This document shows positions 10,063 through 10,161 of a stretch of 64,000 nucleotides of DNA, in pieces. Numbering within the stretch: position 1 is the stretch's first letter; the number at the start of each line of letters is the position of its first letter. A program made the translations under genes and the position numbers. The notes beneath the pieces were generated by a model. The model was not told the DNA's origin, did not search any database, and saw only the letters and a program-made list of their open reading frames with translations. Source of the stretch: Candidatus Omnitrophota bacterium (GTDB lineage: Bacteria; Omnitrophota; Omnitrophia; Omnitrophales; Aquincolibacteriaceae); contig DAOSLF010000005.1 of NCBI GenBank assembly GCA_035368605.1, positions 54,520-118,519 on the forward strand. Reading direction: 5' to 3'.

Positions 10063-10161
10063 TTACGACCAGTCCTTCTTTTTGTGCCGGTTCTTGCGGA
10101 GCTTCTTCTTCCGCTTGTGTTTGTTCATCTTCCTCTTGCGCTGTTTACTTGCCCAAGGCAT
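10063..10161 (-). CDS. Small (32-aa) highly basic protein resembling ribosomal protein bS22
   Basis: Unlisted ORF (under 60 aa) encoding [32 protein letters not shown]. A GGAG SD lies 7 nt upstream of the ATG. The K/R pattern KxRKRxMxKxKHRKxxLxKxR matches the 30-33-aa bS22 family. It lies in the otherwise empty 265-nt ispE-hisG spacer. Confidence 0.5.
   Translation of the reverse strand: [32 protein letters not shown]

Follow-up and report, generated by a model that had tools for sequence, protein, structure and literature searches.

The ribosomal protein bS22 adjoins the decoding centre, and in mycobacteria it modulates aminoglycoside access. Its gene is too small and its composition too biased for annotation pipelines. 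To our knowledge, bS22 was found in each new phylum only once a ribosome structure had been solved.

In solved ribosomes, bS22 is placed in the h2/h27/h44/h45 pocket and contacts 23S H68/H70 (PMC10618245, PMC12123416, PMC7797042). The earlier known range of the protein comprised Actinobacteria, Bacteroidota, and Borrelia, and the bS22 of Borrelia, Porphyromonas gingivalis, and Flavobacterium johnsoniae were unannotated or hypothetical in their own genomes (PMC10618245, PMC12123416, PMC7797042). In the Borrelia work, bS22 was the single ribosomal protein that escaped identification by mass spectrometry (PMC10618245). The Borrelia authors predicted bS22 in further bacteria, and the C-terminal domain of mS38/AURKAIP1/Cox24 and eL41 occupy the same rRNA pocket (PMC10618245).

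In this study, a stretch of 64,000 nt from a Candidatus Omnitrophota bacterium (GCA_035368605.1, contig DAOSLF010000005.1, positions 54,520 to 118,519), hereafter the window, was analysed. The spacer between hisG and ispE carries a 32-codon ORF, which is very probably the Omnitrophota bS22 gene, i.e., a gene of the AURKAIP1/COX24/mS38 type with its own Shine-Dalgarno sequence, probably co-transcribed with hisG and encoding a predicted binder of the h2/h27/h44/h45 pocket.

Organization of the locus

The features of the locus and of the neighboring genes are given in Table 1.

Table 1. Coordinates of the features at the hisG-ispE locus and nearby in the window.
Feature	Position	Strand	Remarks
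tRNA-Gln(TTG) gene	8983-9057	(-)	directly downstream of ispE
ispE	9105-9980	(-)	
Sigma-70-like match inside ispE	9401-9373	(-)	TTGACG-17-TATAAT with TG extension; strong match
Stable imperfect hairpin	9981..10063	(-)	arms 9981-10011 and 10033-10063; bS22 stop to ispE ATG
Putative bS22 coding sequence	10063..10161	(-)	32 codons and TAA stop (10063-10065)
Shine-Dalgarno GGAG	10168-10171	(-)	6-nt spacer (TGAGTC) to the bS22 ATG; read from sequence
hisG	10246-11124	(-)	
Sigma-70-like promoter match	11134..11162	(-)	TTGACA-17-TAGAAT, 11/12; upstream of hisG; consensus scan
gatB ORF	13007-14503	(-)	
Palindrome inside gatB	13427-13479		perfect 20-nt arms, AAAGGGGTCAGACACCTTTT..13 nt..AAAAGGTGTCTGACCCCTTT
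T5orf172/MUG113-domain ORF	14507-15121	(-)	GIY-YIG-like, ~200 aa; between gatA and gatB
gatA/amidase ORF	15439-16881	(-)	
Palindrome inside gatA/amidase ORF	16698-16739		perfect 20-nt arms, TCCAACCTCGCAGGTTGGAT-tt-ATCCAACCTGCGAGGTTGGA

The first-pass annotation of this DNA had described a minus-strand ORF of 32 amino acids in a 265-nt gap between hisG and ispE. The translation was recovered exactly as quoted, and 265 nt indeed separate the ispE start (9980) from the hisG stop (10246). The GGAG described before the ATG was present, with a spacer of 6 nt and not of 7 nt, a negligible discrepancy. The sigma-70-like match upstream of hisG is a candidate promoter, which may drive a hisG-bS22 transcript that possibly extends to ispE. 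By Rfam scan of positions 9000-11300 at E<=1, no ribosomal-protein leader and no riboswitch were detected, and only the edge of a tRNA was hit.

The ORF product contains 12 Lys and 5 Arg among its 32 residues (53% Lys+Arg), and trypsin would cut it into very small pieces. Of all 306 ORFs in the window with 20-45 aa, this was the most basic one and the sole Lys-rich one (38% Lys). The window has 59% G+C, and the other basic chance ORFs there are Arg-rich.

The gene order was compared in relatives. The exact peptide was found on 12 contigs, and it was placed in the hisG-ispE interval in 12/12. Close variants were collected with the query padded by 10 X residues, which gave 22 candidates, all from close relatives; the close variants were all 32 aa. 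The order of hisG, 32-aa ORF, and ispE was also found in six further lineages, i.e., L011, L012, L013/14, L015, L017/18, and L019/20. Seven diverged lineages including that of the window keep the 32-codon ORF together with a GGAG or GGAGG, which is located 6-8 nt ahead of the ATG in 7/7. The spacer between hisG and the ORF ranges from 11 to 211 nt among lineages and is not alignable. Only 11-12 nt separate hisG from bS22 in L015 and L017, and so short a gap speaks for co-transcription in these two lineages.

Gene content downstream of ispE varied. In the sister lineages L012, L013, and L019, spoVG directly follows ispE, whereas ABC-transporter permeases, not spoVG, were found after ispE in the window lineage. 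An extra ORF of 118 aa (3104-3460) without Pfam match is placed between bS22 and ispE in L011. The order ispE-(spoVG)-glmU-like-prs-rplY resembles what we take to be the Bacillus neighborhood, ispE-spoVG-glmU-prs-ctc-pth.

Upstream of hisG, perfect palindromes with 20-nt arms were observed inside gatB and inside the gatA/amidase ORF, both of which are conserved minus-strand genes. Long palindromes without mismatches are uncommon in housekeeping ORFs, and these two may have arisen when small palindromic elements were inserted in frame. The gatA and gatB genes are normally adjacent. The ORF with the T5orf172/MUG113 domain between them has the appearance of a nuclease gene, mobile or selfish, that entered the gatCAB cluster.

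Hairpin between the ORF and ispE

A hairpin directly 3' of the ORF had been claimed, and this structure was found to be present and stable. Its minimum free energy was -49.9 kcal/mol (z = -5.1 relative to dinucleotide shuffles), and none of 200 shuffles folded equally well. The inner stem consists of 11+8 bp with a 17-nt loop, and the outer stem spans from the bS22 stop codon to the bases directly ahead of the ispE start. The assignment of the hairpin to a 'family-B' repeat as copy R1 could not be upheld: when the window was searched for further copies, only the two arms of the hairpin itself were found. As to the suggested terminator role, the stem-loop is stable and directly follows the ORF, but it has no T-run and was not flagged by the terminator consensus scan.

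Because of the missing T-run, the hairpin is not a canonical intrinsic terminator, and a terminator role in the window is only possible. In the other lineages, unrelated and equally strong stem-loops were found at the same position, and T-runs follow in L011, L012, and L017. A role as 3'-end, terminator, or attenuator after bS22 is plausible as a positional feature. Speculatively, the hairpin would most likely mark or protect the 3' end of a short message, or would partly attenuate read-through into ispE.

No Shine-Dalgarno sequence is recognizable for ispE, and the nucleotides that directly precede its ATG (9981-9990) are base-paired within the outer hairpin stem. Dependence of ispE translation on the hairpin structure is a possibility.

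Distribution of the family

A family profile, A1, comprised 19 family members. Among 1.84 billion proteins, this profile hit 247 representative clusters at E<=1e-3. Many of the clusters were longer, i.e., over-extended ORF calls around a core of 29-32 aa. By profile scan of GTDB species genomes, at least 49 homologue loci were confirmed. The listed loci belong to Opitutales and other Verrucomicrobiota, to many Spirochaetota, and to one Amoebophilaceae genome (Bacteroidota). No named Omnitrophota genome was found among the matches listed in GTDB species genomes. The Spirochaetota homologues that were translated have GTG starts behind AGGAG-like Shine-Dalgarno sequences, and Borrelia bb0822 uses a GTG start as well (PMC10618245).

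Neither hisG nor ispE was found within 2.5 kb at any of the listed distant loci (at least 49; Opitutales, Spirochaetota, and Bacteroidota), and tblastn of HisG and IspE against these loci gave no matches. The synteny is therefore limited to Omnitrophota-type lineages, and the peptide is not a leader tied to ispE.

This distribution bears on the possibility that the ORF encodes a conserved small basic peptide that is not ribosomal, e.g., an ispE leader or uORF that governs, together with the hairpin, the read-through into ispE or its translation, or a nucleic-acid-binding or toxic peptide. Such a peptide would fit the placement of the ORF immediately upstream of ispE in all the Omnitrophota-type lineages, the strong stem-loop that then follows, and the outer stem covering the bases before the start of an ispE gene with no obvious Shine-Dalgarno sequence. 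However, the family occurs in three groups away from both genes, regulatory leaders rarely keep their amino-acid sequence across phyla, and the closest characterized relatives are physically resolved in ribosomes. A non-ribosomal peptide is therefore considered very unlikely.

In the literature search, nothing was found linking bS22 with Omnitrophota. The names of PVC and Spirochaete phyla were also combined with bS22 and ribosomal-protein terms, and nothing on bS22 was found. The kind of protein is already known, and what is new is its occurrence in the uncultivated phylum Omnitrophota. From sequence alone, Omnitrophota, Opitutales, and many Spirochaetota are seen to encode bS22.

The PVC-type subfamily (Omnitrophota and Opitutales) has a conserved C-terminal Asp/Ala-Trp tail. 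It is conceivable, though rather doubtful, that bS22 is an ancient, widely retained, and annotation-invisible protein and not a lineage-specific extra, and that at the subunit interface the Trp tail of the PVC type makes a contact specific to this lineage. In that case, bS22, mS38, and eL41 would represent a single protein of near-universal occurrence, which was lost in Proteobacteria and Firmicutes.

Homology to ribosome-bound bS22

The single peptide was searched against all PDB chains using phmmer. Exactly three sequences were returned, i.e., 8FMW_V, 9I5V_10, and 7JIL_5, and all of them are bS22 in ribosome structures (E = 0.0036-0.027). The alignments ran end to end without gaps and showed 16-18 identities over 28-29 positions. 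The proposal that the ORF is similar to bS22 was confirmed by the A1 profile at higher significance, with E-values of 9.3e-8 for 8FMW_V (Borrelia burgdorferi), 5.7e-6 for 9I5V_10 (P. gingivalis), and 1.9e-5 for 7JIL_5 (F. johnsoniae). The mitochondrial mS38 chains 6XYW_BB and 9EVS_c trailed as weak matches (E = 1.9 and 4.7). In the reverse direction, an HMM made from the three PDB chains alone was run against 700 window ORFs, and the sole match was the bS22 ORF (E = 2.6e-7), while the next best ORF had E = 0.12.

A shuffle test was needed, since similarity scores come out too high for basic peptides of low complexity, and the sequences here are very short. The shuffles kept the query composition and Met1. 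For each of the three chains, the real peptide surpassed all 20,000 shuffles in score and in number of identities, and its scores exceeded the shuffle means by about 9-10 sd. The bS22 core motif, HKRKK-x4-NRHKK, is present in the ORF at H15-K19 and N24-K28. Residues H15, K16, R17, K18, K19, R25, H26, K27, and K28 are invariant in the 19 family members. These results indicate that the ORF product is homologous to the bS22 chains bound in solved ribosomes. The first-pass annotation was right about bS22 homology, but the motif it quoted is of the actinobacterial/mS38-like kind, whereas the nearest relatives are of the Bacteroidota/Spirochaetota type.

The peptide could also be ribosome-associated with another site or purpose, like bTHX, bL38, or eL41, and resemble bS22 by convergence of basic composition. 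Small basic ribosomal peptides are alike in composition, and some authors suggested that the resemblance between bS22 and eL41 is itself convergent (PMC12123416). The likeness found here, however, is positional and covers the full length, it includes the pattern MP-G-K...HKRKK-x4-NRHKK, and it was not reproduced by shuffling. The PDB searches with the peptide and with A1 returned no other ribosomal peptide family. Convergence is thus extremely unlikely, and homology to bS22 is the reading adopted below.

Family models and public annotation

COX24_C (PF08213) was the only Pfam family matched by the ORF product, with 15.1 bits (E = 0.021), short of the gathering score (23). Of the 19 family members, 17 matched COX24_C, all of them sub-threshold. 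The NCBIfam model NF047430 (ribo_bS22, cutoff 34 bits) gave no match to the ORF.

Known bS22 proteins were run against the same models. The chains of B. burgdorferi and F. johnsoniae matched neither model, and that of P. gingivalis reached 11.7 bits with COX24_C and did not match NF047430. In contrast, bS22 of M. smegmatis, a control sequence confirmed against PDB 5O5J/5O61, passed both (46.2 bits with COX24_C and 62.6 bits with NF047430). A Pfam profile search had been proposed as a check of the bS22 assignment. The ORF does fall below the COX24_C cutoff, which by itself would have refuted bS22 on the terms of the first-pass annotation. However, neither model accepts the three validated chains, and the sub-threshold result therefore reflects model coverage and not non-membership. 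NF047430 is specific to the actinobacterial type of bS22, and COX24_C does not cover the subtype of the ORF. An Opitutales homologue, which is 65-73% identical to the ORF peptide, passed COX24_C with 29 bits, and this provides a transitive link of the peptide to the AURKAIP1/COX24 family.

The ORF had been supposed to be missing from annotation. This is not the case, as it was called in GenBank and by JGI, but without a name. The identical peptide is OQA40176.1, 'hypothetical protein BWY49_01056', of Candidatus Omnitrophica bacterium ADurb.Bin314 (GCA_002068945.1). On JGI anaerobic-digester contigs, the ORF was also called as 'hypothetical protein'. The label is explained by the standard family models, which miss this subtype. 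The gap between COX24_C and ribo_bS22 leaves the whole Bacteroidota/Spirochaetota/Omnitrophota subtype under that label in standard pipelines. With an HMM dedicated to the subtype, many proteins now called 'hypothetical' would receive a name, and the inventories of ribosomal proteins used for comparative genomics would be corrected.

Selection on the ORF

Across the six further lineages, identity to the window was 65-89% for HisG, 37-70% for IspE, and 78-91% for the 32-aa peptide. The HisG values also show that the related loci are not assembly duplicates of one genome. By the Nei-Gojobori method, in pairs with unsaturated dS, dN/dS of the ORF was 0.01-0.11. Variable columns of the alignment numbered 7, 7, and 28 at codon positions 1, 2, and 3, respectively. 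Both alternative sense frames hold stops in every lineage. Conservation of the ORF and its Shine-Dalgarno sequence in relatives, which the first-pass annotation had left to be checked, was therefore found in seven lineages, and the substitution pattern indicates that the ORF is a real gene, which encodes a protein and is under strong purifying selection.

A basic ORF that arose by chance in the G+C-rich spacer, from which no protein is made, might be suspected from the very short length, the low complexity, and a spurious 246-aa ORF overlapping on the opposite strand (long chance ORFs do occur in the region), but this reading is refuted by the conservation pattern, i.e., an ORF of constant length and placement in seven lineages with unalignable spacers and the mostly third-position variation under low dN/dS, and it also conflicts with the Lys-rich composition in a window of Arg-rich chance ORFs and with the significant homology to solved bS22 chains, so that its probability is practically nil.

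Proposed role

The preferred reading is that of a bS22 gene. The gene would probably be transcribed with hisG, and translation would start from its own GGAG site. The 32-residue product, predicted to be helical, should insert close to the decoding centre, in the 16S rRNA pocket of h2/h27/h44/h45. A further predicted contact, with 23S H68/H70, would add a link between the subunits. The placement in the 16S pocket is proposed by homology, from the solved ribosomes of Borrelia, Porphyromonas, and Flavobacterium. The binding site, the ribosomal role, and the co-transcription with hisG are all predictions. AlphaFold2 predicted a single helix over residues 2-31 (pLDDT 86.8), but a helix is expected for any Lys/Arg-rich peptide, which makes the prediction nearly uninformative. 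The result concerns annotation and phylogenetic distribution and adds no new mechanism.

Comparison with known bS22, mS38, and eL41

The closest known proteins are the bS22 of Borrelia (bb0822, 8FMW chain V), P. gingivalis (9I5V/9I5X), and F. johnsoniae (Fjoh_1533, 7JIL). These have 28-30 aa, compared with 32 aa here. The N-terminal MP, the central HKRKK(K/R), the C-terminal NRHKK(K), and a Lys+Arg content above 50% are common to the ORF and the three solved chains. At positions 3-5, the ORF has Trp-Ala-Ser, whereas the three chains have Cys/Asn/Ser-Gly-Lys/Arg; the sister lineages L015, L017, and L019 carry MPCG. The C-terminal tail of the ORF, Asp-Trp-Ser (D30-W31-S32), is absent from the three chains. 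It is shared with the Opitutales homologues, which end in KKKDW. The start signals also differ. The ORF has an ATG with a Shine-Dalgarno sequence, whereas GTG is used in Borrelia and at the other Spirochaetota loci translated, and Bacteroidia, unlike the ORF, lack Shine-Dalgarno sequences. Ribosome binding was seen for the three solved chains and is predicted for the ORF product.

The actinobacterial bS22 (M. smegmatis MSMEG_0945 and M. tuberculosis Rv0550B; 5O5J, 5O61) has 33 aa and is similarly basic. In an ungapped comparison, about 10 of 32 residues of the ORF are identical to M. smegmatis bS22. By hhalign, A1 residues 3-26 were aligned to residues 3-26 of M. smegmatis bS22 without gaps, with 38% identity and 66% probability. 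In this register, the invariant Lys16 of the family aligns with Lys16 of M. smegmatis bS22, a residue for which contact with the backbone of h44 at the kanamycin pocket was reported (doi 10.1101/2023.03.31.535098). No actinobacterial chain was returned at E<=10 by the PDB searches with the peptide and A1. The C-terminal motif is NRHKKK in the ORF and TRVQRRK in the actinobacterial protein. By these sequence comparisons, the actinobacterial bS22 is far more distant from the ORF than the Bacteroidota/Spirochaetota type.

As for the other occupants of the same pocket, the mS38-type proteins are much longer than the ORF product, and eL41 is a shorter, unbent helix.
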